A DNA stretch of 64,000 nt, from positions 1-64,000 of the forward strand of contig WJMJ01000018.1 of assembly GCA_014728035.1 (NCBI GenBank), read 5' to 3'. Under the pieces are notes generated by a model. The model made no database searches and was not told the DNA's origin. It saw nothing but the letters and a program-made list of their open reading frames with translations. This DNA is from Promethearchaeota archaeon. Lineage in GTDB: Archaea > Asgardarchaeota > Thorarchaeia > Thorarchaeales > Thorarchaeaceae. This document shows, one piece after another, positions 33,353 through 59,395 of this stretch. Position 1 is the stretch's first letter. Each line of letters begins with the position of its first letter. A program made the translations under genes and the position numbers.

Positions 33353-34876
33353 CTAATTCATCAATATTTGTGACGCCTCAAAAGCATAGTCTAATAGAAC
33401 TCCAGGAAAGATGAATAGAATAATTATAGCCAAAGTAGAGATTATCACAGCAAACAGTGGTATCCGTGGTAATTGCATCCTCTCCACAGGTTCATCTAAT
33501 TCTTCACTGAATATCCCTTCATCCATATAGGTAACTTTCAGGATTCGTAGGTAATAACCTAATGAGAATACTGAGTTAAGCAATCCAATAAGGGCAAGCC
33601 ACCAGAAACCAACTTCAACTGCACTCTGGAATAAAATCAATTTAGACCAGAATCCTGCAGTCAATGGCATACCCGCCAAGGATAATACTAAGATTGCAAG
33701 AGATGCTGCGGCAATAGGAGATTTTCTACTTAGCCCCTTCAAATCATCATATGTGACTTGTTTTCCAAGTCTGATAGTTATGGACCAGATTAAAATGAAT
33801 ATTCCAGTCTTCATAATCGCATGGATAAATGCATGAAAGAGCGCGGCTGAAGCACCAAATTCGGTTCCTGCAGCAATACCTATGAAAAGATAACCCATCA
33901 TAGCAATACTCGAATATGCAAGCATCTTCATGATATTTTGTTCGGAGAGAGCTAGTAAGTTTCCAATAATCATAGTCAGTATCGATACGATTACTAAAAG
34001 TGGCATCCATTCTAATCTAGCTGTGAACATACCTACCATAAGTATCTGAATCAGCGCTGCTATTCCAGCTTTCTTTGTTGCACCAGCAAGATATGCGGTA
34101 ATACTTCCATCTGCAGTGCTGTACGTATCTGGCACCCACATCCACCCAGGAAATACTCCAATTTTGAAGCCAAAAGCTATGATGAAGGTAATCAAGGCCA
34201 AAATGATTGCATATGCTGCTGCGGGTGATACTGAAGATTCAGCCCATATAATAGTAATAGTGGTACCAATTGCTGATAGAGAGGTGACTCCAGTAACACC
34301 AATGATGATAGCGATTCCAAATATTAGAAAAGTAGTCGACAACAATCCCATTACAAAATACTTTGTAGCACCATCAACAGCACCACGATGGGGACCTAAA
34401 GCTACAAGTATGTATGTTGGTGTTGACATTAGTTCCCATGCAATGAAAAGAGCAACAATATCGGTTGCCATAACAACCCATATAGCTCCAGCAAATGACA
34501 TCAGCAAGAGGAAATTATAGGGACCTTTGTCCCCTCCAAATAATGTTGAAGACATCAAGACAAAAACAGCCACGACAAGAATCATGACTATGAAGAAATC
34601 AGAAAATGTGTTTCTTACAAATAGACCTCCAAAAGAAAAGCCATACGTTGCAGAATCGAAAATAAGGACCCAAATTCCAGATGTAATAACTCCAATAAAG
34701 CTGAGAGGTAAAGGATTCTTCTTCATTCCTACTAACAGAACTAGTAAAGAGAAACTCACTAGAGTCAGAGCTGGCAGAGACCCAACCCAATCAACTGGTA
34801 CTATTTGAAGAATGATATCACGCACTGGTGCTAAGACCAGTCTAACAGAATCCAAGATTGATGTGAATTGTAACAT
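33353..34876 (-). CDS. nuoN: Complex I-like antiporter subunit N
   Basis: WELMS, ATKYF, FKIGVFP..WVPDTY, ATKKAG and GFWSK. Confidence 0.88.
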   Translation of the reverse strand: MLQFTSILDSVRLVLAPVRDIILQIVPVDWVGSLPALTLVSFSLLVLLVGMKKNPLPLSFIGVITSGIWVLIFDSATYGFSFGGLFVRNTFSDFFIVMILVVAVFVLMSSTLFGGDKGPYNFLLLMSFAGAIWVVMATDIVALFIAWELMSTPTYILVALGPHRGAVDGATKYFVMGLLSTTFLIFGIAIIIGVTGVTSLSAIGTTITIIWAESSVSPAAAYAIILALITFIIAFGFKIGVFPGWMWVPDTYSTADGSITAYLAGATKKAGIAALIQILMVGMFTARLEWMPLLVIVSILTMIIGNLLALSEQNIMKMLAYSSIAMMGYLFIGIAAGTEFGASAALFHAFIHAIMKTGIFILIWSITIRLGKQVTYDDLKGLSRKSPIAAASLAILVLSLAGMPLTAGFWSKLILFQSAVEVGFWWLALIGLLNSVFSLGYYLRILKVTYMDEGIFSEELDEPVERMQLPRIPLFAVIISTLAIIILFIFPGVLLDYAFEASQILMN

Positions 34877-36393
34877 TATGGAACACCTCCAACTATGAAG
34901 TCTGCTGATGCACGTATCAAATCCAGAATAAGATCAGGCCAGACTCCAAGGAGAATAACAGGAATTAACATGATTATAGGAGCAATTAGATCAGACCATG
35001 GAGCATCTTCAACGTCTTTTTCAGGGTCAGGTTCACTGAAGACTATTCGATTCAGTGTCCATAGTAAATAACCTACAGTGAGAAATATTCCGAATGCAAT
35101 CACTGGCGCCCAGATATATACTACTACTGATCCAAATATGATCAAGGCCTCTGCAACAAACCCACTAAGTCCAGGCAAACCAAATGCTGCAAATGATGCG
35201 AGTATTAGAACTGCGGACATCTTCGGTGCCTTTGTCATAAGACCTTGAATATCAGGAATCTCCCGTGTTCCAGCTGCATATTTCAATTGTCCCGCCATAA
35301 TGAACATGACTGAGATAATGACTCCATGAGACACCATCATGAAGACAGCTCCTTGGATTGCTAGACTTGTTCCTACCGCAACTCCAAGTAGTACCCAAGA
35401 CATATGATTGATGGAAGTATAAGCTACCATGGATTTCATATCGGTCTGAGCTAGTGCAGTGAATGCAGCATAGATGCAAGTGAAAATAGCAAGAATTGCA
35501 AATGGAATGCTTAGCTGTACAAATGCATCTGGTATAAGCCAGAGACCCAATCGAATGAAGCCATACCCACCCATTTTCAACAATATTCCCGCAAGGATAA
35601 CAGAGCCAGGTGTGGGTGCTTTCACATGAGCCCAAGGAAGCCAATTGTGTAATGGGAAGATAGGTAGTTTCACTCCTGCACCCATAAAGACGGCTAATGC
35701 GAATCCAATCTGGATATCGATGGGGAGACCCATTTCTCTTAGTAATAGCATATTGAACGTGTGAGGAGTTGAAACAAAGAACAGGACAAAGAATCCAACC
35801 AACATCACTGCAGAGCCAAGATGTGTGTAGATGAAGAACTTGATAGCTGCATGTTGACTACCTTCTTCACCCCATCTACCAATGATAAAGAACATGGGAA
35901 TCAGAACGAGTTCCCAGAAGATGAAGAACCCAATCAAGTCCAAGGACATAAAGACTCCAAGTAGACCTGACTGTAGAAGAAGTATAAGAGCATAGTAGAG
36001 GCCTTTTGATTTGTTAATGTGATTAGAACTGATTGTTGCTATGAGAACTACAAGATTTGCTAAGATGACCATAGCAACTGAGATTCCATCAACTCCCAAA
36101 TACAACTGAAAGGAGATATCAGAAGAGCCTGTGGTAAGAGTTGCAAACGTGTACTCCCATAAGAATTGCATTCCAGCAAAGGGGTCTCCTTCTGCGTAAG
36201 TTGTGGTAATGGAGAATGCTAGGACAAAAGCTAGCACCAGTTCAATTGATGTAATCAGAAGTGCTATGCCACGAGACCCCCTCGAACCTGCAAAGTATGC
36301 TATGATTGATCCCAGGATTGGTAAGACAACCATCAGTGGAAGGATGTCGTAAGGCAATAAACCCAGAATTGTTTGTACAATATCACTCTGCAT
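34876..36393 (-). CDS. nuoM: Complex I-like antiporter subunit M
   Basis: GVDGIS, FWELVLIPM, VKLPIFPLHNWLP, LAGILLKMGGYG and GFVAE. Confidence 0.9.
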   Translation of the reverse strand: MQSDIVQTILGLLPYDILPLMVVLPILGSIIAYFAGSRGSRGIALLITSIELVLAFVLAFSITTTYAEGDPFAGMQFLWEYTFATLTTGSSDISFQLYLGVDGISVAMVILANLVVLIATISSNHINKSKGLYYALILLLQSGLLGVFMSLDLIGFFIFWELVLIPMFFIIGRWGEEGSQHAAIKFFIYTHLGSAVMLVGFFVLFFVSTPHTFNMLLLREMGLPIDIQIGFALAVFMGAGVKLPIFPLHNWLPWAHVKAPTPGSVILAGILLKMGGYGFIRLGLWLIPDAFVQLSIPFAILAIFTCIYAAFTALAQTDMKSMVAYTSINHMSWVLLGVAVGTSLAIQGAVFMMVSHGVIISVMFIMAGQLKYAAGTREIPDIQGLMTKAPKMSAVLILASFAAFGLPGLSGFVAEALIIFGSVVVYIWAPVIAFGIFLTVGYLLWTLNRIVFSEPDPEKDVEDAPWSDLIAPIIMLIPVILLGVWPDLILDLIRASADFIVGGVP

Positions 36394-38586: not shown

Positions 38587-38597
38587 ATCATATCACC

Positions 38598-40109
38598 TCA
38601 TGGGAGAAGTCCACTTACTCCTTCTAAACCGCTGAGTATAATATCCAAGGCTACACCTGGGAAGATTCCAAAGAACACAATTAACACTCCTAGGATAATC
38701 ATTGGAATGACCATGGAACGGGGTGCTTCAGATACATCTTCAAGTTCATCTGGGTGAGTTCCTAGAAATACCCTCCAGAGAAACCGCAACATGTATCCAG
38801 CACTAACAATCGAACTTGAAACAGCTAAAACGCTAAGAATGAGAAACTCAGGCCGAAGAATTCCAGAAGATGAGACCAGAGCTGCATCAAAACCACCTAG
38901 AAACATCATCCATTCACTTGCGAACCCGGATAATGGAGGACTACCAGCAATACTCATAGCTCCAATAGCTGCTGTAAAAGCAGTGAGGGGCATCTTATTT
39001 GATAGCCCACCCATCTTTGTAATATCACGAAGTCCAGTCTGGTGAATGACAGCTCCAGCAGCCATAAACAATAGTCCTTTGGAGAAAGCATGATTGATTA
39101 GATGGAATAATCCGCCACTAACACCCATAGTTGTATAGACTCCTAGTGAAAACAAAATGTATCCCATCTGTGAAACAGAAGAATAGGCTAGAAGACGCTT
39201 GATATCAATCTGAGCCAAAGCCATGAAACCACCATAGAACATGGTCAGCACTCCGATAACTGCAATCCAAAATGAAAGTGCTGCTGCTGCAGGACCAAGT
39301 AAAATCGACCCGAAACGAACAAGTGCATATGCACCAGTTTCAATCATAGCTCCTGAAAGAAGAACAGAAATTGGAGTTGGAGCTTCAGCATGTACAGGTG
39401 GTAACCACCAATGAATGGGAAAGACTGCCATTTTGACTAAGAATCCAGCAGCCATAAGTATGAAGATAATCTTGAGCAGGTCAGTAACTGCAGAACCAGC
39501 CAATGCAGTCTGAATAACTTGTAATTCAAAAGAGCCTGTGAGCATATAGAGGAAGCCAAAACCTACCAAAATGCACAGAGCGCCCGATTGAGTATATAAC
39601 CAGAACTTCATTGCGGTGCGCTTGCGAGTTTCAGGAAGTCCCCAGAAAAGTATCAGAAAGTAACTTGGAACAAGCATTATTTCCCAAGCGATAAAGAATT
39701 CGATGAGATTTGTTGCTAGAACCACCCACTGCATGCCCATTAGAAAGAAGAGTTGATTTGCAAAGAAAGTGGGTTTATTCTTCGTGTGATCAGTATATCC
39801 GACTGCATAAACCACTGATAGAAAACCAAGAACAACTATGGCAAATACAATAGGAAATGAAACTCCATCTAAGAATAGAGCAAATTCACCAAATACCGCA
39901 GACCACGTTGCAGCTTCTTTTGCAACCCCGCCCTCAATCATGACTCGATAAAATGGTAGAATCATCAATACCATCGAAGCAAATGAAAACCCAACTGCCA
40001 CTTTTCCAGCTGAAGTCTCTAATCGAGATTTGAGGAGATAGATTAACAGAGCTCCTACAAAGAGAACAGCAAGTGAGCTACCCATAAATGGAAAGTTCAC
40101 GAATTGCAC
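38598..40109 (-). CDS. Additional (fourth) NuoM/MrpD-like antiporter subunit
   Basis: WEIMLVP, VKMAVFPIHWWLP..HAEAPTP, KRLLAYSS and GFASE. Probable GTG start overlapping the nuoI stop (ORF track start 40133). Confidence 0.85.
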   Translation of the reverse strand: MQFVNFPFMGSSLAVLFVGALLIYLLKSRLETSAGKVAVGFSFASMVLMILPFYRVMIEGGVAKEAATWSAVFGEFALFLDGVSFPIVFAIVVLGFLSVVYAVGYTDHTKNKPTFFANQLFFLMGMQWVVLATNLIEFFIAWEIMLVPSYFLILFWGLPETRKRTAMKFWLYTQSGALCILVGFGFLYMLTGSFELQVIQTALAGSAVTDLLKIIFILMAAGFLVKMAVFPIHWWLPPVHAEAPTPISVLLSGAMIETGAYALVRFGSILLGPAAAALSFWIAVIGVLTMFYGGFMALAQIDIKRLLAYSSVSQMGYILFSLGVYTTMGVSGGLFHLINHAFSKGLLFMAAGAVIHQTGLRDITKMGGLSNKMPLTAFTAAIGAMSIAGSPPLSGFASEWMMFLGGFDAALVSSSGILRPEFLILSVLAVSSSIVSAGYMLRFLWRVFLGTHPDELEDVSEAPRSMVIPMIILGVLIVFFGIFPGVALDIILSGLEGVSGLLP

Positions 40110-40540
40110 TAGCGAAACCTCCGTCCTCGCCATTCTAAAGGTTCACGGTCAAGGGTGGTAATCTTATCTGGTCCATAGAGTAAATCTTCACGTTCTCCTT
40201 CGCTGATATCAACAACTTTCGTGTGATAGAGTGCTTCAAATCTACAAGCTTGAACACAGAGCCCACAGAATATACACCGGGTATAATCAAAGTACAATGC
40301 AGCATCTTTCTCATACTTTTGATCAGCTGTGTCAATTGATATAGCTACAACCGGACATGCACGAACACACTGTTTGCATGCTGTACAATTCTCTCTGACA
40401 TGAATGTGTCTACCACGAGTCCGTTCAGGATAGTCTCTATCTTCGAAGGGATAGAAGTAGGTGAAGGGTCTCTTGAAGATCTGTCTGAATACATTTTTAA
40501 GTATTTGAAATATATCACCTAGCGTTGAGAAGAATCCCAT
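40109..40540 (-). CDS. nuoI: Complex I-like 2[4Fe-4S] subunit I
   Basis: T..YP.E...RTRG, CTACKQCVRACP and CIFCGLCVQAC; ATG 40540 with GGAGG RBS. Confidence 0.9.
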   Translation of the reverse strand: MGFFSTLGDIFQILKNVFRQIFKRPFTYFYPFEDRDYPERTRGRHIHVRENCTACKQCVRACPVVAISIDTADQKYEKDAALYFDYTRCIFCGLCVQACRFEALYHTKVVDISEGEREDLLYGPDKITTLDREPLEWRGRRFR

Positions 40541-40545
40541 TATTT

Positions 40546-41676
40546 TCAACCTCCGAGAAGCAGCAATCCGGCTAATCCCGGAATATACACAATAGCAAGC
40601 ATTGCTAGCACGACATTGAGTATCGAAAGTGGTAGCAGATATTTCCAACAGTACTCTACAATCTGGTCAGGTCTCAATCGATAGAAAGATGAAGTGACAA
40701 CTATGTAGAGAAAGAAAACGATTAAAAATTTGATAATGAAGTTCATAGCTGGAGGAAGGAAAGGTAATCCAAATGACCCTCCAAAGAACAATGCAACCAT
40801 CATAGCACTGTATAGCATCTGTTCTGCAAATTCAGCAAAATAAGTCATAGTGAAATAAATTCCTGTAAACTCAGTTCTCCATCCAAAAATAATCTCTGAG
40901 TCAGCTACCGGTGAATCGAAGGGGAATGTTCCAACAGATGCGATAGAACTAACCATGAAAGTCACTAGGTTGATGGGGAGTAAAAGAACAAACCAGATAC
41001 TGTTCTGAGCTTGTGCTATACCCATTAAGCTTAGAGACCCAGCCAACATTGCAGGACCTACTGACGAGATTATCATGGGAATCTCCGCAGCAAATTGATT
41101 GTTTGCTGCTCTAAAACCCCCAATGAGAGAATATTTCGATCCGGATACCCAACCTGCTAAGAGTGCAATTACTGGTACTGCAGTTAGAAAGGCAAAGATT
41201 AGAACAAGACTAACACTGAGGTCGGCAATAAACCAAGTTGGAGACCAAGGTATGAATGCAAATGGTAGTAGAACTATCACTAATAGCAAACACGGAAGAA
41301 ATCTGAACATCCAGCGTTTTGCCTTGTCAGGGATAATGGTCTCTTTTGAAACCAGCTTGATTGCATCTGCGAACAACTGGAATCCTCCAAATTTACCAAT
41401 ATGAAATGGTCCTCGTCTGTCTTGTATCCGCCCCCACATTTTCCGGGTGAACCAGACAGAAAAAATAATTCCCAGTACAATAAATACGAGACCAGGAAAG
41501 AGTATGGCCCTGAAAAGAAACCAAAAGTTATCAATGACTGCTGCCCAAGCAAATACAAAGATTCCCCAGATGCCATTGAAGACCCAGACAATGATTCCGT
41601 GTAACCACATAATGACATCATATAGCCAAGTTGGAATGCCTGCAAGCCATTGAAAGAAATCTATCTGTAACATCAT
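40546..41676 (-). CDS. nuoH: Complex I-like subunit H
   Basis: RIQDRRGP, QLFADAIKLVSKE, SKYSLIGGFR, PFD and RLRPDQ. Confidence 0.9.
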   Translation of the reverse strand: MMLQIDFFQWLAGIPTWLYDVIMWLHGIIVWVFNGIWGIFVFAWAAVIDNFWFLFRAILFPGLVFIVLGIIFSVWFTRKMWGRIQDRRGPFHIGKFGGFQLFADAIKLVSKETIIPDKAKRWMFRFLPCLLLVIVLLPFAFIPWSPTWFIADLSVSLVLIFAFLTAVPVIALLAGWVSGSKYSLIGGFRAANNQFAAEIPMIISSVGPAMLAGSLSLMGIAQAQNSIWFVLLLPINLVTFMVSSIASVGTFPFDSPVADSEIIFGWRTEFTGIYFTMTYFAEFAEQMLYSAMMVALFFGGSFGLPFLPPAMNFIIKFLIVFFLYIVVTSSFYRLRPDQIVEYCWKYLLPLSILNVVLAMLAIVYIPGLAGLLLLGG

Positions 41677-41684
41677 AATCACTC

Positions 41685-42818
41685 CTATCTGTCCCACCAA
41701 CCTGGGTATGGATCTAAACTTCCGAATATCACAATGAAATCAGCAAACTTGTTTCCAGGAACAAGATGCTTCAACGAATAATATGAGTTGAAACAAGGGC
41801 CTCGTATTTTTGCTCGATAGGGTGTTTGTGATTTATTCATTGTGCGAAGATACAGAGAAGTAATACCACGAGTACCTTCCACACGTCCATACGCTTCTCC
41901 TTCTGGAAGACGATTTGCTTTTCCACGTGCTTTGGGGTTGTATATCTCACCCTCTGGAAGGAGTGGAAGTAGTTGACGAATAATCTCTACCGAGGTTTCG
42001 ATTTCCTTGAATCTCTGGACCATCCGATCATAAGAATCACTTTCTCCAGGATGCTCCTTGTTAACATATGTTGGAACCTCCCAGTCCACCATGTCATAGG
42101 CTAAGTTCTCGTCAGGTGAATCTTTTCGAAGATCCATTGGAACACCACATGCACGGATATTTGGACCGCTTAATCCCCATCGCAGTGCTTGATTTGTGGT
42201 GAATTGTCCAATACCTCGAGTTCTTACTTTGAAGGTTGGACTTCGTAATAACATATCCCGAAATTTTGGCATCCGATCTTCTAACCGTTTCACTGCTCTA
42301 TTCAGTTTCTTTAGAAATTTATCAGTGAAATCATACTTGACTCCGCCAGGTGTATTGTAAGATACCGCATGTCGTGAGCCAGTTAATTCTTCAAAAGCAT
42401 CAAGGAAAAATTCTCGATCCACCCAGGGCCATAGAAGCATAGTGAATAAACCAAGTTCTGCTGCAAATTGCCCCCACCAAAATTGTAGACTATGAATTCG
42501 ACTAGCCTCCATCATGATAGTACGCATTACTTTTGCTCGTTCAGGAATGTCTATACCGGCTATTCGCTCTACAGCTGAAACATATGGATATTCTGCTAGA
42601 AACGCCTCTAGCATGCAAAGGCGTTCCATAATGAGCGCACCTTGTCTGAAATTCCGAAACTCAAGACACTTCTCTGCAGAACGATGGAAGTATCCAGCAT
42701 TGGGATCACATTCAACAATATAGTCCCCAACTAGTGTGAGTTTGGCTGCCCAACCATGAGCTGAAACGTGTTGAGGACCGAACCAGATCTCAGTAGCTTC
42801 TTCAAGTACGTCCTTCAC
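41685..42818 (-). CDS. nuoD: Complex I-like subunit D (no NiFe site)
   Basis: FGPQHVSAHG, GYFHR, SGPNIRACG, EGTRG and terminal SLD...DR; no CxxC pairs. Confidence 0.9.
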   Translation of the reverse strand: MKDVLEEATEIWFGPQHVSAHGWAAKLTLVGDYIVECDPNAGYFHRSAEKCLEFRNFRQGALIMERLCMLEAFLAEYPYVSAVERIAGIDIPERAKVMRTIMMEASRIHSLQFWWGQFAAELGLFTMLLWPWVDREFFLDAFEELTGSRHAVSYNTPGGVKYDFTDKFLKKLNRAVKRLEDRMPKFRDMLLRSPTFKVRTRGIGQFTTNQALRWGLSGPNIRACGVPMDLRKDSPDENLAYDMVDWEVPTYVNKEHPGESDSYDRMVQRFKEIETSVEIIRQLLPLLPEGEIYNPKARGKANRLPEGEAYGRVEGTRGITSLYLRTMNKSQTPYRAKIRGPCFNSYYSLKHLVPGNKFADFIVIFGSLDPYPGWWDR

Positions 42819-43336
42819 CTGTTAGCACCTCCATCTGATGTAGTTGATTTGACCTCAGTCTCTTCTAACCTACTTCTATCAGTCTTGAAACTCTTTCTTA
42901 AGGGGTACTTTCCCTCTAGTTCTTCTGGAAGTAACAATAATCGTAAATCAGGATGTCCTTCGAAATATACTCCAAACATCTCATGTGTTTCTCGCTCATG
43001 CCATTCCATTCCAGGAAAAATATCAGAAATACTTGGAATAGTTGGTGTATCTACTGGAAGAGGGACACGTATCTGGCATAGAACCTGATTTGAATGTGAC
43101 CAGAAATAATAGATAACTTCGAATCCTGAATCCTCCAGATCCACTCCAAGTATTGTTTCAGGAAAGAGGTCAGAGTACGCAGCATCTAACATCTTCACTA
43201 TATCAACGATGTATTCTGGTGAGGTATCAATTTGAACTGTCTGGAAGCCTGCGGTGCGAGCCTCAATCCCCTTGAATTTTTGTTTCAGCTCATGCACCAA
43301 TTGAGCTCCAGAAATTCCACCCTCAGGGTTAGACAC
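42815..43336 (-). CDS. nuoC: Complex I-like subunit C
   Basis: WHERETHEMFGVYFEGHPDLR and YPLRK; GTG 43336 preceded by AGGAGG. Confidence 0.9.
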   Translation of the reverse strand: MSNPEGGISGAQLVHELKQKFKGIEARTAGFQTVQIDTSPEYIVDIVKMLDAAYSDLFPETILGVDLEDSGFEVIYYFWSHSNQVLCQIRVPLPVDTPTIPSISDIFPGMEWHERETHEMFGVYFEGHPDLRLLLLPEELEGKYPLRKSFKTDRSRLEETEVKSTTSDGGANR

Positions 43337-43649
43337 TTCGAGTTTCCTCCTGATGAATTGTTTGTCCAAGATCCACTGTTCCATACCGTCGATGATACAT
43401 AAGCATCAGAACCATTGCTAAAGCGGTATGAGCTGCTGCGATAGTGATGATGAGAATAGTTAGGCCTTGCCCAGTAAACGTGAATGGTGTATTATACAAT
43501 GCAAAGGCAATGAGAGCGATTGTTACACCATTGCCAATAATTTCAGCACCGATGAGTACACGAATGAGGTTTCGTTTAACCATCATTCCATACACACCTA
43601 ATCCTATCAGCATAAATGACAAGATCAGATACCATGACATTGGAATCAC
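43329..43649 (-). CDS. nuoK: Complex I-like subunit K
   Basis: GLGVYG..KRNLIRVLIGAEI; 3 TM helices. Confidence 0.88.
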   Translation of the reverse strand: MIPMSWYLILSFMLIGLGVYGMMVKRNLIRVLIGAEIIGNGVTIALIAFALYNTPFTFTGQGLTILIITIAAAHTALAMVLMLMYHRRYGTVDLGQTIHQEETRSV

Positions 43650-44260
43650 TCTTCATCATCTCCTTTAATCTCAGAGTACCCTGGATGAGTTACAGCTTCG
43701 ATTCCAAACTCTCCTTTGATAGGTTCTAGACGTTCAGCCTTTTCCATCTTCATAATTACCACAGCACCAACAAGAGCAGTCAGAATAATTAGCGCACTCA
43801 TCTGAATATAGATACCATGACCACCCCATAACCATTGAGCTAGACCCTCAAGACTCTGAGAGAGGTCTATATTCTCTATTGCAAAGCTTTCAGGCCATGG
43901 AAAGAGAAGAGCAAGAGTACCGGATAAGATCATCACAATAGTTGCAGTAAGAATGCCCAGTTGTTTTGCACGAGATGTTGGAAACACCTCCAATGTACTA
44001 TCTTGAGCTCGTGGCAATAGTAGAACAGCAAAAATAATCAATGCACTGATGCCGCCAGTATAGACTGCGATCTGCATCCCTGCAATGAATGGTGCTTCTA
44101 GGAGCAAATAGAAACCTGCAACAACTGACGCCATAATTCCGAAAAAGAATGCTGCATAAACAATATCTTCATGTTCCAATGCAAGATATGCAAGGATTAG
44201 CACTAAACCTGCAAGTAGCAAAAACTCAACTTGTTCAAAGAGGGTCTCAATTCCTTGCAT
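43646..44260 (-). CDS. nuoJ: Complex I-like subunit J
   Basis: LEAPFIAGMQIAVYTGGI; 5 TM helices. Confidence 0.88.
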   Translation of the reverse strand: MQGIETLFEQVEFLLLAGLVLILAYLALEHEDIVYAAFFFGIMASVVAGFYLLLEAPFIAGMQIAVYTGGISALIIFAVLLLPRAQDSTLEVFPTSRAKQLGILTATIVMILSGTLALLFPWPESFAIENIDLSQSLEGLAQWLWGGHGIYIQMSALIILTALVGAVVIMKMEKAERLEPIKGEFGIEAVTHPGYSEIKGDDEE

Positions 44261-44861: not shown

Positions 44862-44890
44862 TGAGGTGTTAGAAAGAGTCAGTGATATAG

Positions 44891-52109: not shown

Positions 52110-52565
52110 CTAGTTTTCTGGAGGATATCTAGATGCATCTTCTTGCAACATACCTGAGGTTGTAGATTCTTCAAGAGTAGGCATGATAGAAAATCCAGCT
52201 GCTATGAAAAGAGCACCACCAACCCCCCAGGAAACCAAGAATAGGGCATCAGAGAATGTTACTGTACCATCGAGAGGGGGCATAAGCAATACGACAATAA
52301 ACATCATTGTAGCTATGACACCGGAGATTGCTAACATTGTTGGTTTTATTTTGCTCCTTTCTGGTTTGAGATACCCACCCAGACTAAAAATGAGAATTAA
52401 TGGTGCAGAGAGCAACCATGCTAGAAATGGAAATCTTTCCAGAATGTAACCAGGATTTGTGACCTCCAGATAGAGAAAATTGAAAAAATACGTGCTGAGG
52501 AGTAGTACACCTAACCAAAGAATGCAATATGATTCGCTGTCTTCTCTTAGTTTCATGATACACAC
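52110..52565 (-). CDS. 4-TM membrane protein directly downstream of the FAD-oxidoreductase-NuoB gene
   Basis: Abuts the upstream stop codon; four hydrophobic segments. Confidence 0.65.
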   Translation of the reverse strand: MCIMKLREDSESYCILWLGVLLLSTYFFNFLYLEVTNPGYILERFPFLAWLLSAPLILIFSLGGYLKPERSKIKPTMLAISGVIATMMFIVVLLMPPLDGTVTFSDALFLVSWGVGGALFIAAGFSIMPTLEESTTSGMLQEDASRYPPEN

Positions 52566-54512
52566 CTATGACAAGATACCTAACGCATCCTGATTTTCAT
52601 TCTTCATTTGCCAGTGAGTTGTTCCTGCTCTGATCTTATTCTGAAGAATCAGATGTGCTCGTATGAAATCTGAAGGCTTTGGCGGACAACCAGGTAGGTA
52701 AACATCAACTGGCACTACTTTATCTGGGGGAGTCATAAGTGAATATCCATCCCAAAATAGACCACCACTTGCAGCACATTGTCCAAAAGATATGACGAAT
52801 TTAGGCTCGGGCATTTGTTCGTAAATTCTTCTTAGACGGGGTGCCATCTTCTTCGTTAAACTACCCGATATCCACAGTACATCAGTCTGGCGAGGTCCAA
52901 ACAATGGAAGCATACCAAATCGTTCTACATCCCATCTGGATGCAACTCCAGCAGCACCATCAACCATACAACATCCAAGACCATATTGCACAGGCCATGG
53001 ACTATGAGCTCTCCCCCAGCGAAGAAGCCACTTTATTGGAGGTACGTTCTGAAACCACTTTAACAGAATCGGTGCAATCCTTCCAAATCCATTTCTAAGA
53101 AAATCAAAAGCAATCCACATGAAGTACTTTCCAATTCGAAGAATGAATGGAAGCCAATAAGCGAATATCTTCCCTGGATTCGATATTTCCTTTGGGTCAA
53201 ATTTCAATTTTGCACTTCGAATTCTGGCTAGTCTTTTCTTACCAAAGTATTCAGGAGCATAATTGGCAAACCATATTCCTGTAGAGTGGGCATGACCACC
53301 ATGCCGCTGTGCAATCTTGAAAATGACAAAACTCTGAGCCCAAGAAAGCATATAGAATCGTCTTCGTTCATCTTCCAAAAAATAACCCATCATCGTGACA
53401 CCTGCTTTAGATGTCACGTAACCATCCACACCAGCTTTAGCAGAGGCTTGTTCAAATTGAAAATCATCCAAGATTGCGTGAAGATTCTCAAGTGGAGCAA
53501 AGGCCTGACCAACAACGAGAGTGGGACCCGCCTTTTTGATCTTCATTGGATAGAAACGATCTTCCCATTCATGCTCCGCAACATGACGATCATAGATAGT
53601 TCCATGATATTCTTCAGTGACCTCACAAACAATTCGTAAACCAGCTTTGCGTTCATCCTCATTTCCATCAAAAGCAAATACAACAACACAGTGATGAACA
53701 GGGTAGGGGAAGGGTTCCTCCTCTTCCCATATCTTCTTCTTGAGATCAACATACTTGCTCTCTTTGAATTTGATTGTGTGAGGAATGGGAGCTTCTTCTA
53801 TTACCTTTTCAATAGCCATATTCATCAAATAATTTTCAGGAAAACTCACTACAATAGGGTCTATTGGAGTTAGAGGTTTACACTTCAGTTTAACCTTGGT
53901 AATTATTCCCAGAATTCCTTCTGTATCGCAAAATAGATCACGTTCTTTTGTCCTAACAATTTTTCCAGTAGGAAGAACAACTTCAAACTCAAGAACGCTG
54001 TCGTTAACAATACCGTATTTTAGTGAGCCAATACCATCTCCACCTTGTGCCACCCAGCCACCAATCGTAGCTGAAAGACCTGATGAGGGGTAGCATCTAA
54101 GATCGAGGTTTTGACGGTTTAGTTCATGTTGTAGATTTGCCCAAGATATACCAGGTTCTGTCCAGACCCATTCTTCTTCTGTATTGATTTCGAGAACGGC
54201 ATCCATCTCACGCATATCTACAATTATTCCCCCTTTCCGGGGAATAGCGCCTCCGTAGCCTGAGGTTCCTGCTCCCCGAGGTACTAATGGAATTTTCTCA
54301 TCATTAGCAAATTTGTAAAGAGCCTGCACCTCTCGAGGAGTTCTAGGACGCACTAACGCATCAGGGGTATTATTCATCAACCAGCCTACTTGTTTCGGAA
54401 GAGATCCGACATCTTGAGAATGGATTATAAGCTCGTGCTTTGCTGTAACTACACGACCTTGGAAAATCTCCAGAAGATTTTCAATCTGTTTATCCTTTAA
54501 TCCCATTAGCAA
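52566..54512 (-). CDS. Fusion of GlcD/D-lactate dehydrogenase-type FAD-linked oxidoreductase (N-term) and NuoB (C-term)
   Basis: FAD domain: PRGAGTSGYGG, PSSGLSATIGGW, TEGILGIITK, FDP...NPGK. NuoB domain: SPWP..YGLGCC, PRQTDVL..SG, YEQMPEPK.VI..GQCAASGG, PVDVYLPGCPPKP. One continuous frame. Confidence 0.9.
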   Translation of the reverse strand: MLMGLKDKQIENLLEIFQGRVVTAKHELIIHSQDVGSLPKQVGWLMNNTPDALVRPRTPREVQALYKFANDEKIPLVPRGAGTSGYGGAIPRKGGIIVDMREMDAVLEINTEEEWVWTEPGISWANLQHELNRQNLDLRCYPSSGLSATIGGWVAQGGDGIGSLKYGIVNDSVLEFEVVLPTGKIVRTKERDLFCDTEGILGIITKVKLKCKPLTPIDPIVVSFPENYLMNMAIEKVIEEAPIPHTIKFKESKYVDLKKKIWEEEEPFPYPVHHCVVVFAFDGNEDERKAGLRIVCEVTEEYHGTIYDRHVAEHEWEDRFYPMKIKKAGPTLVVGQAFAPLENLHAILDDFQFEQASAKAGVDGYVTSKAGVTMMGYFLEDERRRFYMLSWAQSFVIFKIAQRHGGHAHSTGIWFANYAPEYFGKKRLARIRSAKLKFDPKEISNPGKIFAYWLPFILRIGKYFMWIAFDFLRNGFGRIAPILLKWFQNVPPIKWLLRWGRAHSPWPVQYGLGCCMVDGAAGVASRWDVERFGMLPLFGPRQTDVLWISGSLTKKMAPRLRRIYEQMPEPKFVISFGQCAASGGLFWDGYSLMTPPDKVVPVDVYLPGCPPKPSDFIRAHLILQNKIRAGTTHWQMKNENQDALGILS

Positions 54513-54690: not shown

Positions 54691-55914
54691 ATGGAATTTC
54701 CTTCACTAAAGAAACATGGATTAGATATCAACGCATTTACCTGTGCACAATGTAGTTTTTGCCAAGTGGGTCACGGAGCTTGTCCTACATACAAGGTAAA
54801 ACGTGTCGATAGCTACTCAGGGAAAGGTAAAATGCTAATCACTCGAGCATTAGCACAAAAGCGAATCAAAGAGAAGGAAGGTCTCCCGGGACTACGAGAT
54901 GCCATATTTGGATGCACCCTTTGCGGAGGATGCGAAGAAATTTGCCAAGTAGATATTCCGTTCGTAAAGATATACCAATTGATGCGGTCAGATTTCAAAG
55001 ATTTAGGAATGTGGCCTGAAGAATTGGAAGATGCTAAAGCAACTCTCACAAAGTCACGAAATATCCAAGGGCAACCACAAATGGACAGAATTGAAGGGTG
55101 GTCTTATTGGCATCCAGATGAAGATTATCTTCTGGATCGAGAAGGTGTGAAAAACAAAACTGCTTTCTTCTTGGGATGCGCTTCTTCATTCAAAGCAGTT
55201 CCAATTCAAGCCTCCATTGCCACAGCTATGATCATGGAGAAAATTGATGAGGAGTTCACCATGTTGGGGGAGGAGGAGTGGTGTTGCGGAGCCCCCCTAA
55301 TCATGACTGGGGATTTTGAAGGAGCAAAAGAATATGCAATGCATAACATCCAAAAATACCAAGAGCTAGGTGTTGAACGCATTTTCACGAATTGTCCGGG
55401 TTGTTACAAGATGTGGGCTCATGAGTACCATGAATTTCTGGGAATTGAGCATGAATTCGAAATAATCTACGGTGCAGACTTTTTCATGCGTTTACTTGAC
55501 TCTGGCAAATTCAATAATATCAGTAGCGATTACGAGGCAACAATTACATTCCACGACGGATGTGACGCGGGTAGAAATGCAGGTTTCTATGAGGAACCTC
55601 GAAAGGTACTGGAAAATTTACCGGGGATTACTTTGGAAGAATTACCTCATAATAAAGAAAATTGTTATTGTTGTGGTTCTGGTGGAGTTTTACGAGCTAT
55701 CGATAATGAATTTGCATTGAGTATAAACCACCTTAAGGTAGAAGATATCGAACAGACGAATACAGAGATAGTTGTATCTGCATGTCCTTCTTGTGTAGAC
55801 TTCATGCACAATCAACTCCCAAGTGCAGGCTCAGAAAAAGCTTCAATGGATCTTGCAGTAATAATAGCAAAATCGTTAGGTCTTGAGTGGGATGGATTAG
55901 ATGAAGTATACTAG
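54691..55914 (+). CDS. GlcF/HdrD-like Fe-S oxidoreductase (2[4Fe-4S] plus two CCG domains)
   Basis: CAQCSFC...CP and CTLCGGCEEIC; FLGC/WCCG/CPGC and HDGC/CCGSGG/CPSC. Confidence 0.88.
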   Translation: MEFPSLKKHGLDINAFTCAQCSFCQVGHGACPTYKVKRVDSYSGKGKMLITRALAQKRIKEKEGLPGLRDAIFGCTLCGGCEEICQVDIPFVKIYQLMRSDFKDLGMWPEELEDAKATLTKSRNIQGQPQMDRIEGWSYWHPDEDYLLDREGVKNKTAFFLGCASSFKAVPIQASIATAMIMEKIDEEFTMLGEEEWCCGAPLIMTGDFEGAKEYAMHNIQKYQELGVERIFTNCPGCYKMWAHEYHEFLGIEHEFEIIYGADFFMRLLDSGKFNNISSDYEATITFHDGCDAGRNAGFYEEPRKVLENLPGITLEELPHNKENCYCCGSGGVLRAIDNEFALSINHLKVEDIEQTNTEIVVSACPSCVDFMHNQLPSAGSEKASMDLAVIIAKSLGLEWDGLDEVY

Positions 55915-55915
55915 T

Positions 55916-57019
55916 CTAATCCATGAATGATCTAATGTTAGATAGAATAGCTAGAAAGAGAGTCACTAGTAGCACAATCTCCCATGGAATCATTAAGCCT
56001 ACCAATAGATAGGATAGACAAAGAAGAATTCCTGTCAGCATATGGTTCTGAATAGTTCCTGCATTTGCAGGTACGAGTTCTGGAATATCATTATGGCTGG
56101 ATAAACATATCATTGATGATTTGACAGCTAAAGGAACGGTTACTAGAATGAGAAGAGTATGAAGTTGGACAAGCCCAAAAATTACTCCAATAATTATTGG
56201 AAGGTACGTTGCCGCCATGATTACAACATATCCTTTCGCAGCTCTTTTTCTTCCTAATCTTACAACCAATGTTTTCTTTTCTGCATCACGGTCTGCATCA
56301 TGGTCAGGAAATTCATTAATATAAAGAACGGCCATAATTAGAAAAGCAACAGGTAATGAAGCAATAATTGGTTCTAGTAATTCATAAACCAGCAGAAGAG
56401 GTATCGACATTATCGGTTCTTGAAGAATATTCTGAATTTGAATAGGATATTGTACATAATAAGACCCAACCACCATCAATGTTCCGAAATTCAATGCGAT
56501 GAAGAATTCTCCAATACCTCTAGTTACCAACCGAAATGGTGGAGCAGTATAAAAGAAACCACTTCCAATACCAACAATACCTAGAATAAGAATGAATACA
56601 CCAAGTTGCAAAAACAGATAGATACCGATACTTGCTCCGATTGCGAAGAAAACTAGTGAGCCGGATAGAACCTCACGAGGAGATAAGAATCCTTTCTGAA
56701 TCATTCTACTACCTCCAGTATAAGGCCGAATGAATTCTTTGTTGATATCATCAGAACCAGTCATATCCGTAGTATGATCAAAATAATCGTTGGATACATT
56801 CGCACCTATATGTAGACAAATTGCAGCAATCAGAGTTAGAAGAAAATAATCAAGCCTGAAAACAGAATGGAGACCCCATGCAATAGCTGCTCCGAGAAAC
56901 ACAGGGATAGTTGAAGCAGTTAGAAATGGTGCTCGAAGTTCGATTAGCCATGCTTTAATCTTTCCAGGATGCACCTCATCTACATCTGGGATATATTCGT
57001 CTTCAGTCACAGGAATCAA
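55916..57019 (-). CDS. menA: 1,4-dihydroxy-2-naphthoate polyprenyltransferase (MenA/UBIAD1, UbiA family)
   Basis: LRAPFL, NDYFD, FYTAPP...GIGE and NEFPD..AD....KKTL.VRLG. Confidence 0.85.
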   Translation of the reverse strand: MIPVTEDEYIPDVDEVHPGKIKAWLIELRAPFLTASTIPVFLGAAIAWGLHSVFRLDYFLLTLIAAICLHIGANVSNDYFDHTTDMTGSDDINKEFIRPYTGGSRMIQKGFLSPREVLSGSLVFFAIGASIGIYLFLQLGVFILILGIVGIGSGFFYTAPPFRLVTRGIGEFFIALNFGTLMVVGSYYVQYPIQIQNILQEPIMSIPLLLVYELLEPIIASLPVAFLIMAVLYINEFPDHDADRDAEKKTLVVRLGRKRAAKGYVVIMAATYLPIIIGVIFGLVQLHTLLILVTVPLAVKSSMICLSSHNDIPELVPANAGTIQNHMLTGILLCLSYLLVGLMIPWEIVLLVTLFLAILSNIRSFMD

Positions 57020-57126
57020 CTATTGGTTTTTGATGCAGAAAGTTCCTTAATGACTGTATTGAAAAGTCCAAAATCACAATTGCTAATAGGATAATTGCGT
57101 AAGGAACGCATACCGGAGGAACTCTC

Positions 57127-58185
57127 TTGGAGGATAAAACTCAGAACCGGCCGCATCATGATGCATCAGATAGTGGTGGTCTGAGTAAGGAAGTACTACA
57201 CCATGATAAGGCGTTTCAAACATTATATAGACATTCTGGCCTTATTGAACGAGCAAGCAAGATTGAAAAGGCAATTCAAGATTTCATTCAAGAAAATATG
57301 GGGCAGCCTGAAATTCTCTATCAAGCAGCAAATCATCTTATTTTAGCAGGAGGAAAACGAACACGTTCACTTCTATCCTTGTTAGCTTGTGAAGCCGTAG
57401 ACGGAGATATTGAGAGAGCCCTTCCACTCACCATTGCAGCCGAGCTTTTACAAACAGCCTCACTGATTCATGATGACATTATTGATGCAGGAACAACTCG
57501 TAGAGGTGTTGAAGCTGTACATGAAAAATACGGAGATCACATCGCAATTCTAGCGGGAGACCTACTGATAGCAAAAGCGATAGAGATGATTGGTGAACAT
57601 GGAACAACTGAACTTCTACGTCATATTGGAAACGGTGGCGTTAGAATGTGTGAAGGAGAAGCCATCGACCTAGCATTAAGCACCGAAAAACCAAATGTGT
57701 ATTCTAAAGACCAATACTTTAAGATGATCGAGCTAAAGACAGTAGCATTTCTTAGCGAGTCAGCAAGATTAGGAGCTATGATGGGAGAAGGAAATGAAAA
57801 GCAAGTTGAAGCACTCTCAGAATTTGGTGAATATCTAGGATATGCATTTCAGATTCAAGATGATGTACTGGACTTGAGAGCTTCAATTGAAGAAATCGGG
57901 AAATCTCCATTTGCAGACCTAAAGACAAGGAGAAGCAATTTTCTTCTGGTTCATTCTCTAGAAACATCTGATAATTCTACAAGAAAATCAATCTGTGATG
58001 CTCTTGATAAAGGTCAATACGAACAGGCAGCGAATCTAGTTTTTGCTACAGGTGCCGAGGAAGAAGCAAAAAAGATTGCTAAAGAATACGTTGAGAAAGC
58101 CAAAAAAGTATTGAAAAAAGAAGAGTTGCAAAAAATCGAGTTACTCTTTGAGTTTGCAGATTCAGTTGTATCGCGTCAAAGATAA
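57127..58185 (+). CDS. trans-Polyprenyl diphosphate synthase, probably medium/long chain
   Basis: GGKR, ASLIHDDIID, RRG, KT and FQIQDDVLD. Confidence 0.9.
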   Translation: MEDKTQNRPHHDASDSGGLSKEVLHHDKAFQTLYRHSGLIERASKIEKAIQDFIQENMGQPEILYQAANHLILAGGKRTRSLLSLLACEAVDGDIERALPLTIAAELLQTASLIHDDIIDAGTTRRGVEAVHEKYGDHIAILAGDLLIAKAIEMIGEHGTTELLRHIGNGGVRMCEGEAIDLALSTEKPNVYSKDQYFKMIELKTVAFLSESARLGAMMGEGNEKQVEALSEFGEYLGYAFQIQDDVLDLRASIEEIGKSPFADLKTRRSNFLLVHSLETSDNSTRKSICDALDKGQYEQAANLVFATGAEEEAKKIAKEYVEKAKKVLKKEELQKIELLFEFADSVVSRQR

Positions 58186-58198
58186 TTGCTTTTCTTTT

Positions 58199-59395
58199 TT
58201 AATCTAGTATCTTCATTAAAGGGACAATAATTTTCGATCCTAGTAAAACTGGAAAAGGTAACCTACATCGGATTAGCGGCTCAAGTAGAAAGGGGCCTGC
58301 TATTCCCATACTCAAATGTGTAATCAAATCGTTCGAGAGTATCTTATCTGCAATCTCACGAACCTTAACCGCATCAAATAATGTCTGCCCCATTTCTCTT
58401 TTCCATCGAATCTCGTAGTTTGATAATGAAGAAGAAGTATCCATCGAATCGATTATTGATTCGGCCGCAATTTCACCTCCAATAATAGCAGTAGGAATAC
58501 CTCCACCATTTGAAGCCATAACATGACCTGCTGCATCACCAACTAAGAGGGTGTTTTTTGTTGCTGTTATAGAAGCTGGGCCACCAATAGGAATGAGAGC
58601 TGATACTGAATGTTTCAAGGATGCATGCCTCATACATGGTTCAATCAATGGATTTCGCTTCATGAGATTCTTTAAGAAAACACGTAGAGGAAGACTCCGT
58701 TCATTGTAGAACTGCCTTAAGCCTAAGCCTAAATTCACTGACCCACCTCCTTTGGGAATAATCCATGCATATCCTCCAGGTGCAACCTGTTGACCGAAGT
58801 ACATCTCAGTTACAGACTGGTCACAAGCTGTGTCATCTAGTACGAATTGAATCGATTGACTAAATTGTGAATTAGAATGGAAATTCCCAATTGATTGGGA
58901 AATGATTGATTTGGGCCCATCAGCACCAACTATATATTTTGCAGCGAGCTCTTTAGTTCCTCGATTAGTCTTTACTAACAACCGATTCGATTCACTCTTT
59001 TCTAACACCCGAAACTGCAAATGTAGCTCAGCTCCTTGTTCAACTGCTCTTTTGACCAAGTGTTTGTCAAATCGAGCCCTATCGATGATATTTGCATTGA
59101 ACCTGAAACGCGTAATATTACCTCGTGGTGAAATCAAATGAGTCCAGTAAGTTCGATTAGTAATCAATTTGTCTGGAATGGTGGCAATTCGCTTCGCTCT
59201 TGGTGAATTAGGGAAGATATCTGAACATTCTCCCGGAGTTGGAAAATATTCTCCGCATTGTATAGGCATCCCAATTTCTTTTCTACGATCTAATAGCCCC
59301 ACTCTAATGTCATTCTCTGAAAGTATTCGAGCAGTAGTACTTCCAGCAGGTCCAGCACCGACGACTATTACGTCGTAGTCAATCTTTGCCATCAA
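58199..59395 (-). CDS. Geranylgeranyl/prenyl reductase family flavoprotein
   Basis: GAGPAGS, CGE, DRARFD, GADG, PGGYAWIIP and VGDAAG...GGGI. Confidence 0.88.
   Translation of the reverse strand: MMAKIDYDVIVVGAGPAGSTTARILSENDIRVGLLDRRKEIGMPIQCGEYFPTPGECSDIFPNSPRAKRIATIPDKLITNRTYWTHLISPRGNITRFRFNANIIDRARFDKHLVKRAVEQGAELHLQFRVLEKSESNRLLVKTNRGTKELAAKYIVGADGPKSIISQSIGNFHSNSQFSQSIQFVLDDTACDQSVTEMYFGQQVAPGGYAWIIPKGGGSVNLGLGLRQFYNERSLPLRVFLKNLMKRNPLIEPCMRHASLKHSVSALIPIGGPASITATKNTLLVGDAAGHVMASNGGGIPTAIIGGEIAAESIIDSMDTSSSLSNYEIRWKREMGQTLFDAVKVREIADKILSNDLITHLSMGIAGPFLLEPLIRCRLPFPVLLGSKIIVPLMKILD

Follow-up and report, generated by a model that had tools for sequence, protein, structure and literature searches.

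We analysed a 64,000-nucleotide stretch of DNA from a Promethearchaeota archaeon of the Thorarchaeaceae (GenBank assembly GCA_014728035.1, contig WJMJ01000018.1, positions 1 to 64,000; referred to here as the window). It carries an operon for a complex I-like ion pump and, upstream on the same strand, a gene in which the pump subunit NuoB is joined to a flavoprotein. The window corresponds to contig C130, in our labeling, of a 4.33-Mb metagenome-assembled genome estimated to be 97.9% complete and 8.5% contaminated; the closest relatives of its proteins are, in every case, labeled Thorarchaeota. Family assignments were made from Pfam and NCBIfam profile matches, judged against the cut-offs of the models. 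Comparisons covered 400 Asgard genomes, in which the family of the window comprises 16 genera (g1 to g16), and an exhaustive HMMER scan covered 1.84 billion representative proteins. A first-pass annotation of the window had proposed a pump with an electron input module fused to it, and all the genes that it named were found where it had placed them.

The complex I-like operon consists of 11 genes on the minus strand, running from 44710 down to 33353 in the order nuoA-J-K-C-D-H-I-M'-L-M-N according to Pfam. It opens in this genome with nuoA (44261-44710; PF00507), which is followed by nuoJ (43646-44260; PF00499), nuoK (43329-43649; PF00420), nuoC (42815-43384; PF00329), nuoD (41685-42818; PF00346), nuoH (40546-41700; PF00146, 288 bits), and nuoI (40109-40648; Fer4 families). 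The translation of nuoI contains two cysteine motifs for [4Fe-4S] clusters; its orthologs align from residue 37, and Met37, near 40540, is the likely start. The remaining four genes encode antiporter-like subunits matching PF00361: M', a second nuoM-like gene whose product is closest to NuoM paralogs (38598-40133; 243 bits); a lengthened nuoL of 730 amino acids that also matches PF00662 (36394-38586); a nuoM-like gene of 505 amino acids (34876-36393; 225 bits); and a nuoN-like gene of 507 amino acids (33353-34876; 196 bits), with orthologs at the same position in other genera. A second NuoM and a longer NuoL lateral helix, the two marks of "2M" complex I, are thus both present. In NuoL, the lateral-helix motif D..[IV][IV]DG is duplicated, at residues 649 and 675 (26 residues apart), which fits the extra antiporter-like subunit of 2M complexes (PMC6606698). 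The core subunits of complex I, NDH-1, and Fpo (A, B, C, D, H, I, J, K, L, M, and N) all score above their Pfam cut-offs in the window, with B found only inside the fusion; no match to PF01058, the NuoB family, lies inside the 11-gene operon. The marks of a group 4 [NiFe]-hydrogenase are missing from this complex, in which NuoD has neither of the NiFe CxxC pairs and NuoB has the tandem CC.

The fusion (52566-54512, minus strand) is a single open reading frame (ORF) with matches to FAD_binding_4, FAD-oxidase_C, and Oxidored_q6. As called, it encodes 648 amino acids; the likely true start is the ATG at 54506, two codons in, giving the 646 amino acids found in all orthologs. Residues 1 to 450 (53163-54512) form a flavin adenine dinucleotide (FAD) flavoprotein domain (PF01565, 133 bits; PF02913, 44 bits), residues ~451 to 492 (53037-53162) form a linker of conserved amphipathic helices, and residues ~493 to 648 (52566-53036) form the NuoB domain (TIGR01957, 171 bits with a cut-off of 142.7; NF005012, 178 bits). 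The NuoB domain has all four cysteine ligands of cluster N2 (GCC at 513, GQCA at 577, and GCPP at 608). When compared with structures in the PDB, it scored 150 bits with the PSST/Nqo6/NdhK subunits of complex I, 109 with the membrane-bound sulfane-sulfur reductase (MBS), and 99 with the membrane-bound hydrogenase (MBH). It is also the best-conserved part of the protein, with 84 to 93% identity between orthologs, compared with 69 to 88% for the linker and 69 to 74% for the flavoprotein domain. The public annotation of the fusion is "NADH-quinone oxidoreductase subunit NuoB."

Six proteins encoded in the genome match PF01058 (Oxidored_q6). The tandem-CC motif of complex I is present in the fusion alone, and the other five have the CxxC of hydrogenases. 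One of these five lies in the window, at 17590-18363, and is the CxxC small subunit of a group 3b-like hydrogenase. Hence, the earlier statement that the only NuoB in the window is fused holds for NuoB of the complex I type, but the window does contain a second PF01058 protein. The hydrogenase to which that protein belongs is cytosolic and is encoded by four genes (16313-20290, minus strand), for a Fer4_22 subunit, an FAD/NAD-binding subunit, the small subunit, and the large subunit. We also considered a stand-alone 171-amino-acid NuoB-like gene on contig C103 as the missing subunit of the operon and rejected it, since it has a CxxC motif and clusters with a NiFe large subunit. That cluster is nuoA-B-C-D-H-I-like. 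Both NiFe motifs, ERICGICSATH and DPCFSCTDR, are intact in the large subunit that it encodes, and it represents a true group 4 [NiFe]-hydrogenase, complete with small subunit. The cluster (~77300-81460; L007 6960-11462) adjoins 2-hydroxyglutaryl-CoA dehydratase genes. A nuoJ/K-L-M-N-like membrane-arm cluster is found on contig C108 (~10450-16470; L039 6457-12470), and the C103 and C108 clusters together may form a second energy-converting complex.

Input modules of known kinds were looked for across the same genome. NuoF and NuoE (PF01512 and PF01257) gave no match anywhere in it, given its estimated completeness of 97.9%; NuoG was not searched for separately. Contig C69 (42226-43275; L038 6224-7276, minus strand) does carry a gene for a 350-amino-acid FrhB/FpoF-like protein whose N terminus is a two-cluster ferredoxin domain; the gene lies beside one for GTP cyclohydrolase II. 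Each of the 16 genera has an ortholog (41 to 51% identity), even the four from which the operon is missing, and in no case does it adjoin the nuo operon. An FpoF-like input for the pump seemed unlikely for these reasons and was set aside. At the scale of the genome, therefore, the first-pass picture stood as regards NuoE, NuoF, and other complex I-type NuoB proteins, none of which was found, but a NuoB-like gene (C103) and an FrhB/FpoF-like gene (C69) do exist.

Among the 400 Asgard genomes, the full-length fusion was found only in genera g1 to g12 of the window's family. Orthologs of NuoD (73 to 91% identity) were found in exactly the same 12 genera and in none of g13 to g16. A length-restricted search with the linker and NuoB part as the query returned ~47 clusters (at 90% identity) of 646-amino-acid three-domain proteins, nearly all labeled Thorarchaeota and 82 to 98% identical in that part. 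The two domains occur together in a single 50%-identity cluster among the 1.84 billion representatives scanned, and a further cluster consists of a 498-amino-acid unfused ortholog; past these two, there were only GlcD-like proteins of no more than 41% identity, many of them fused to Fe-S/CCG modules. Where the fusion and nuoD share a contig, they are in most genomes ~3 kb apart and on the same strand, with the fusion upstream. The order in the four genera that we inspected in detail is the fusion, a small hydrophobic ORF of the type called orf151 below, a gap of ~0.8 kb, and then nuoA-J-K-C-D-H-I-M'-L-M-N. In a fifth genus (G320), the fusion is ~1.2 kb upstream of nuoA, and no homolog of orf151 was detected in the gap between them.

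In the window, fusion and nuoA are 7.9 kb apart. This gap is a genus-specific insertion, common to the window and the one other genome of the genus, and contains genes for a methyltransferase, a tetratricopeptide repeat protein, and other products. The methyltransferase gene lies just upstream of nuoA (45273-46280, minus strand); its product is UbiE/MenG-like, although below the cut-offs, and has an N-terminal Trm112-like zinc ribbon. A promoter motif common to the regions upstream of nuoA and of the fusion was unsupported in the window (best local alignment of 20, against a mean of 16.8 and a maximum of 26 for shuffled sequences). In one other genome (G334:C5:93250-95186), the fusion is in two overlapping frames, with the break at about residue 431 to 437, within the flavoprotein domain; a frameshift or a fault of the assembly seems more likely here than a true separation of domains.

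We conclude that the fusion is very probably the NuoB of this complex, as the first-pass annotation had supposed: the genome encodes no other NuoB of the complex I type, the genera that have the fusion are those that have the operon, and in most of them the fusion directly precedes nuoA. Conservation and synteny, which that annotation had suggested examining, bear it out, with the fusion kept in 12 genera and mostly right before nuoA. Two of the outcomes that it had named as fatal were looked for, and neither was found, in that no stand-alone nuoB groups with the operon and the fusion is not absent from relatives. The contrary view, that the fusion lies outside the nuo complex, would reduce its NuoB domain to an additional [4Fe-4S] domain within a flavoenzyme, either soluble or at the membrane surface, and would leave the operon inactive or dependent on another small subunit. 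The distance of 7.9 kb from nuoA in the window, with unrelated genes between, would agree with this. We find it scarcely credible, however, given that the gap is specific to one genus and the fusion directly precedes nuoA in most others, that co-occurrence among genera is perfect, that the genome has no other CC-type NuoB, and that no part of the protein is better conserved than the NuoB domain.

The pump core also occurs with an unfused NuoB. A second Asgard family (G397) has an identical J-K-C-D-H-I-M'-L-M-N order with nuoA divergent, a NuoD that is 50% identical to that of the window, and a stand-alone NuoB that is 63 to 66% identical to the fused NuoB domain. In a third Asgard family (G003), nuoA and nuoB form a divergent pair. 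Since this same NuoEFG-less, two-NuoM kind of operon goes with an unfused NuoB in other Asgard families, the core appears able to work without the flavoprotein. These gene orders indicate that the NuoEFG-less two-NuoM pump, with the unusual NuoD pocket described below, is an Asgard-wide type, that the fusion is an innovation of the Thorarchaeota family, and that the pump core predates the fusion.

Conversely, the flavoprotein occurs without the pump. Genus g14, which has no nuo operon, encodes an unfused ortholog of 496 amino acids (57% identity) that ends in the same amphipathic tail (G386:C3:116447-117931, corresponding to L023 18448-19935; G385:C64:10878-12362). This gene adjoins those for the CCG partner described below, a MenA-like protein, a prenyl synthase, and a reductase. 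With the flavoprotein, its CCG partner, and menA retained in g14 and the nuo genes absent, the module would be self-sufficient at the membrane. The g14 tail closes with PPLKWLRN, which resembles PPIKWLLRWGR, where the first NuoB helix of the fusion begins. The similarity extends over a few residues only; the g14 gene may be what is left of a fusion after truncation.

The flavoprotein domain is predicted to have the fold of D-lactate dehydrogenases and of the vanillyl-alcohol oxidase (VAO) family. In an AlphaFold2 model, residues 1 to 450 have a predicted local distance difference test (pLDDT) score above 90, and Foldseek matched them to mouse LDHD (template modeling score normalized by target length, 0.85), to LctD of the Acetobacterium lactate dehydrogenase/Etf complex, and to alkyl-dihydroxyacetone phosphate synthase. 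The alignment over the NuoB part was shallow, and the monomer model is of low confidence there and uninformative about the placement of NuoB relative to the FAD domain. Across the whole flavoprotein subfamily, including the CCG-fused enzymes, the metal-site motif reads GGxPYxTGxW. As the altered motif is common to the whole subfamily, it would reflect a different chemistry rather than decay, and the substrate cannot be read from homology.

In the same model, the linker forms helices at residues 453 to 474, 476 to 489, and 491 to 501. Its Kyte-Doolittle maximum is 1.25 and its hydrophobic moment is high, so that hydrophobicity is too low for a membrane span; the linker (~45 residues) probably lies on the membrane surface. 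The amphipathic linker recurs as the C-terminal tail of the unfused g14 ortholog. Directly past the stop codon of the fusion begins orf151 (52110-52565, minus strand), whose product has ~4 hydrophobic segments by hydropathy and is a candidate extra membrane subunit or assembly factor. In other genera the corresponding ORF lies between the fusion and nuoA. Neither Pfam nor NCBIfam assigned orf151 to a family, and a protein-atlas search was uninformative.

Divergent from the fusion, at a distance of 178 bp, is the gene for an HdrD/GlcF-like CCG protein of 407 amino acids (54691-55914, plus strand; PF02754 in two stretches, and PF13183). Its cysteines at positions 18, 21, 24, and 31; 75, 78, 81, and 85; 163, 198, 199, 235, and 238; and 291, 327, 328, 365, and 368 are invariant in 54 sequences, and they make up sites for two [4Fe-4S] clusters in a ferredoxin-like domain and two CCG-type sites. 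Orthologs (62 to 90% identity) are confined to Thorarchaeota, and the next relatives are 36% identical. They are present in g1 to g12 and g14 and absent from g13, g15, and g16, which is exactly the distribution of the flavoprotein, and most are encoded head-to-head with it. A relative of the flavoprotein, 38% identical to it, ends in a CCG module to which the window's CCG protein aligns along its entire length (E = 3e-46). The second half of another relative, P0095, was considered as a CCG module and rejected, as it is not one.

A complex of flavoprotein residues 1 to 500 with the CCG protein was predicted with a score of 0.88 (three runs, 0.87 to 0.90), whereas the best of 3 controls scored 0.01. 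Among solved complexes, 58 of 80 score this high, and among mismatched pairs 2 of 110; these counts are approximate here because custom alignments were used. At least 95% of the contacts agreed between runs, and the pLDDT of the partner was at least 89. In the predicted interface, the N-terminal helices and FAD-binding loops (81 to 83 and 144 to 147) of the flavoprotein meet the CCG protein at its first cluster motif (residues 13 to 27 and 84 to 88). Co-occurrence, the head-to-head position, the CCG-fused relatives, and this prediction agree with the earlier proposal that the CCG protein is the partner of the flavoprotein, and we consider it likely that the two form one module. Arrays of 2 to 4 paralogous GlcD-like/CCG pairs lie beside the fusion/nuo island in several genomes, at L022 (G320) 6893-19872, L033 (G317) 804-11751, and L037 (G328) 11191-15956. 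In the genome of the window, such pairs are scattered over contigs C37, C45, C71, C94, C38, and C151.

Three genes related to a lipid carrier follow the gene for the CCG protein. The first (55916-57019, minus strand) encodes a MenA-like aromatic prenyltransferase of the UbiA family (PF01040) that scores 104.4 bits with TIGR00751, just above the cut-off of 102.15, and falls below the cut-offs of other MenA models; the gene is syntenic in other genera. The second (57127-58185, plus strand) encodes a polyprenyl diphosphate synthase (PF00348, 205 bits), and the third (58199-59395, minus strand) encodes a flavoprotein of the geranylgeranyl-reductase family, a prenyl chain reductase (TIGR02032, 228 bits with a cut-off of 158.8).

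That the module of flavoprotein and HdrD-type protein is tethered at the N terminus of NuoB by the membrane-surface linker is strongly supported, and it would thus be held permanently at the membrane-proximal base of the peripheral arm. As to the path of the electrons, we infer a route in which pump and module share a lipid carrier, and we favor it tentatively, at somewhat less than an even chance, over a direct wire to N2. Reduced ferredoxin would deliver electrons through NuoI to N2, as in other headless complexes. N2 would then reduce, in the cavity formed by NuoB, NuoD, and NuoH, a prenylated lipid carrier made by the products of the adjacent MenA-like, prenyl synthase, and prenyl reductase genes, and this step would drive ion translocation. 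The tethered module would not feed N2 directly; it would move electrons between a soluble organic substrate and the same carrier, near the mouth of the cavity, in the order FAD, [4Fe-4S] clusters, CCG clusters, and carrier. Most likely it would act as a dehydrogenase that feeds the carrier pool, and the two-NuoM pump could also run backwards on the ion gradient, yielding reduced ferredoxin. Quinol-to-ferredoxin reverse electron transport has been proposed for two-NuoM complexes (PMC6606698). A demand of the Wood-Ljungdahl pathway for reduced ferredoxin was considered as a rationale and dropped, as CdhC was not found in the genome.

The shared-carrier route is favored because NuoI is retained with both of its cluster motifs, because unfused relatives have the same core and g14 has the module alone, and because paralogous flavoprotein/CCG arrays sit beside the island in several genomes. 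It is favored also because the potential span available from a hydroxyacid donor is small. The 2-hydroxyacid/2-oxoacid couple lies at about -190 mV and menaquinone at about -74 mV, a span of ~0.1 V; by these textbook potentials, transfer from a 2-hydroxyacid to menaquinone would be too weak for five pump modules, which should need several-fold more. Finally, a 2M pump suits the transfer of electrons from ferredoxin to a carrier, or the reverse. The first-pass annotation had cast the flavoprotein and the CCG protein as the electron input (or output) module of an organic-substrate:menaquinone pump, and the input version of that proposal fares badly on the same grounds: the core exists with an unfused NuoB, NuoI is retained, g14 has the module without nuo genes, and the span is too small.

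Several observations weigh against the shared-carrier route, or against parts of it. In HMMER alignments to T. thermophilus Nqo4 and P. furiosus MbsL, NuoD keeps the equivalent of His38 (T. thermophilus numbering; GPQHVSAHG), but the quinone-binding Tyr87 is replaced by Met and Asp86 by Cys (ERLCMLE), the Cys being as in the sulfur-reducing MBS; the site may not bind ordinary quinone. The best match of NuoD in the PDB is MbsL of P. furiosus MBS (6U8Y; 203 bits), with a common Cys...Glu pattern at the first NiFe/quinone motif, although the C terminus of NuoD is complex I-like (SLDPYPGWWDR) and has no Cys. The Met/Cys pocket is present in all the Thorarchaeota orthologs and also in G397, where NuoB is unfused. 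Across these Asgard families, NuoD keeps the His of GPQH..HG, has Met in place of Tyr87 and Cys or Ser in place of Asp86, is missing both NiFe CxxC pairs, and ends like NuoD of complex I. No head-group pathway for menaquinone was found, either futalosine or classical: the genome, estimated at 97.9% complete, yielded no MqnA or MqnD, no MenD, and only MenB matches below the cut-off. The missing Tyr of NuoD and the lack of a known head-group pathway make it doubtful that the acceptor should be called menaquinone, as the first-pass annotation had called it. MenA-like genes also occur in genera that have neither pump nor module, and because of this the synteny of menA is suggestive but not exclusive. 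In the flavoprotein, HMMER alignments with two solved relatives place Ala at the metal-site Glu of D-2-hydroxyacid dehydrogenases, and the motif EHGIG reads AHSTGIW. The likeness of flavoprotein and CCG protein to solved FAD/Fe-S/CCG proteins could account in part for the predicted complex. Lastly, a covalent tie to the N2 subunit, rather than to some other subunit, is what a direct wire would lead one to expect.

Direct wiring of the module to N2, such that a soluble organic or disulfide substrate, and not NADH, supplies the electrons of the pump or takes them up, is on balance unlikely but a serious contender. Were it an input wire, substrate would be oxidized at the FAD, and electrons would pass through the CCG clusters to N2 of the fused NuoB and on to the carrier, making the complex a pumping organic-substrate:carrier oxidoreductase. 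Its attraction is that the fusion partner is the N2 subunit itself and that the four cluster sites of the CCG protein, which is predicted to sit on the FAD domain, could bridge the gap; moreover, NuoE and NuoF were not found in the genome, and the FrhB/FpoF-like gene elsewhere is not distributed with the operon. Nevertheless, we regard an input wire as improbable. A hydroxyacid donor would offer menaquinone ~0.1 V, by textbook values, where five pump modules should need several times more, and NuoI, which would be idle in such a scheme, is kept. Relatives have the same core with an unfused NuoB, g14 retains the module with no pump, and the tether is an amphipathic, probably membrane-surface linker at the N terminus of NuoB and not a rigid dock. 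In the opposite direction, electrons would pass from ferredoxin through NuoI and N2 to the HdrD-like protein and the FAD, and from there to a soluble acceptor, either a disulfide or a 2-oxoacid, so that the span from ferredoxin to this acceptor would drive pumping. A quinone-independent output of this kind would suit the loss of Tyr87 from NuoD, its MBS-like Cys...Glu pattern, the failure to find a menaquinone head-group pathway, and the HdrD-like partner with every CCG cysteine in place. There is a precedent in a hypothesis for Methanomassiliicoccales (PMC7374477), and Asgard MBH-like complexes are reported to have a peripheral Hdr domain (bioRxiv 10.1101/2024.07.04.601786). On the other hand, synteny with the module extends, in many genera, to the genes for the MenA-like protein, the prenyl synthase, and the prenyl reductase, and the C terminus of NuoD is of the complex I type and has no Cys. 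Unfused relatives share the NuoD pocket, which argues that the pocket is not an adaptation to the fusion. The characterized relatives of the flavoprotein fold are dehydrogenases, and the Methanomassiliicoccales model is itself unproven. Taken together, these points leave an output to a soluble acceptor distinctly unlikely. If direct wiring were true, the fusion would supply the first hard evidence that HdrD-type modules dock on headless complex I cores, as has long been assumed, and in the output version quinone would be unnecessary as well.

The flavoprotein domain might instead be a supernumerary domain without catalytic activity, recruited from an enzyme for a structural, assembly, or regulatory role, as some accessory subunits of mitochondrial complex I were recruited from enzymes. 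Loss of the metal-site Glu of D-2-hydroxyacid dehydrogenases and the conservation of the domain at 69 to 74%, below that of the NuoB domain, are consistent with this. Yet the FAD-binding domain scores strongly and is modeled with pLDDT above 90, the partner keeps all its cluster cysteines across 54 sequences, the unfused ortholog and its CCG partner persist in a genus that has no pump, and the altered motif is that of a whole subfamily including CCG-fused enzymes. We consider a noncatalytic role very improbable, and we return to the shared-carrier route as our preferred reading.

The complex can be set beside several known systems. Headless 11-subunit relatives, namely cyanobacterial NDH-1 and the Fpo-like complexes of Methanothrix and Methanomassiliicoccales, likewise have subunits A to D and H to N and no NADH module, and they likewise have a complex I-type NuoB with tandem Cys and NuoI as the likely point of ferredoxin entry. 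In contrast to those relatives, NuoB is fused here at its N terminus to a 450-residue flavoenzyme, the gene order is A-J-K-C-D-H-I-M'-L-M-N, NuoD lacks the quinone-binding Tyr, a second NuoM is present, and NuoL is lengthened. In Methanomassiliicoccales, the Fpo-like complex and HdrD have been proposed to act as a ferredoxin:heterodisulfide oxidoreductase (PMC7374477). There, a soluble HdrD-type CCG protein is supposed to act together with a headless pump, the association is only assumed, and there is neither flavoprotein nor fusion. In the window, by contrast, the HdrD-like protein has a genetic link to the pump and, by way of the flavoprotein that it is predicted to bind, a physical one, the connection through NuoB is covalent, the organism is not a methanogen, and lipid-carrier genes are adjacent.

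The module itself resembles the glycolate oxidase GlcDEF, D-lactate dehydrogenases, and YdiJ-like D-2-hydroxyglutarate dehydrogenase, all of which combine a VAO-fold FAD domain with a protein that has two [4Fe-4S] and two CCG sites. It departs from these enzymes in its missing metal-site Glu and altered subfamily motif, and its C terminus is an amphipathic tail plus NuoB rather than a CCG module. The 2M variants, as Chadwick et al. 2018 is cited in PMC6606698, share the second NuoM and the lengthened NuoL and have a proposed link to ferredoxin and reverse electron transport; in that account the 2M clades described have a free NuoB, unlike the complex in the window. MBS (6U8Y) has the Cys...Glu pattern at the first NiFe/quinone motif in common with NuoD of the window. 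However, the C-terminal Cys of MbsL is absent here, the membrane arm is of the Nuo type with a NuoL lateral helix rather than of the Mrp type, and the fused NuoB is nearer to complex I (150 bits) than to MbsJ (109 bits).

Other genes of the window flank the island or lie farther away. Directly past the 3' end of the nuo operon, an ankyrin-repeat protein of 528 amino acids, almost all of it repeats, is encoded at 31725-33311 (plus strand), with an ortholog in the same place in a sister genome. A full-length bacterial-type MutS with domains I to V (59897-62497, plus strand) flanks the island here and in other genera. Two very long ORFs encode 2118 amino acids (21007-27363, minus strand) and 1830 amino acids (7715-13207, plus strand).

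Relatives of complex I are modular, and the same core is found joined to modules for NADH, F420H2, ferredoxin, hydrogen, or sulfur. The module considered here, consisting of a VAO-fold flavoenzyme and an HdrD-like partner, is of another kind, and it is joined by gene fusion to the N2 subunit; because of that fusion, physical association need not be guessed from gene neighborhood. Full-text literature searches on NuoB of Thorarchaeota and Asgard archaea and on NuoB-GlcD fusions returned no description of such an architecture, in line with the first-pass view that none has been described. The broadest survey of Asgard complex I-like systems covers MBH-like complexes with an Hdr domain and headless Heimdall complexes and does not mention the fusion (bioRxiv 10.1101/2024.07.04.601786). 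The conserved NuoB-flavoenzyme fusion thus apparently represents a known pump family with a new, covalently attached module. It makes the idea that HdrD/GlcF-type modules act on complex I cores, as proposed for Methanomassiliicoccales, directly testable. It also bears on energy conservation in Asgard archaea, which are usually modeled as fermenters: these Thorarchaeota genomes combine a five-module pump, what would be a prenylated carrier, and arrays of flavoprotein/CCG dehydrogenases.

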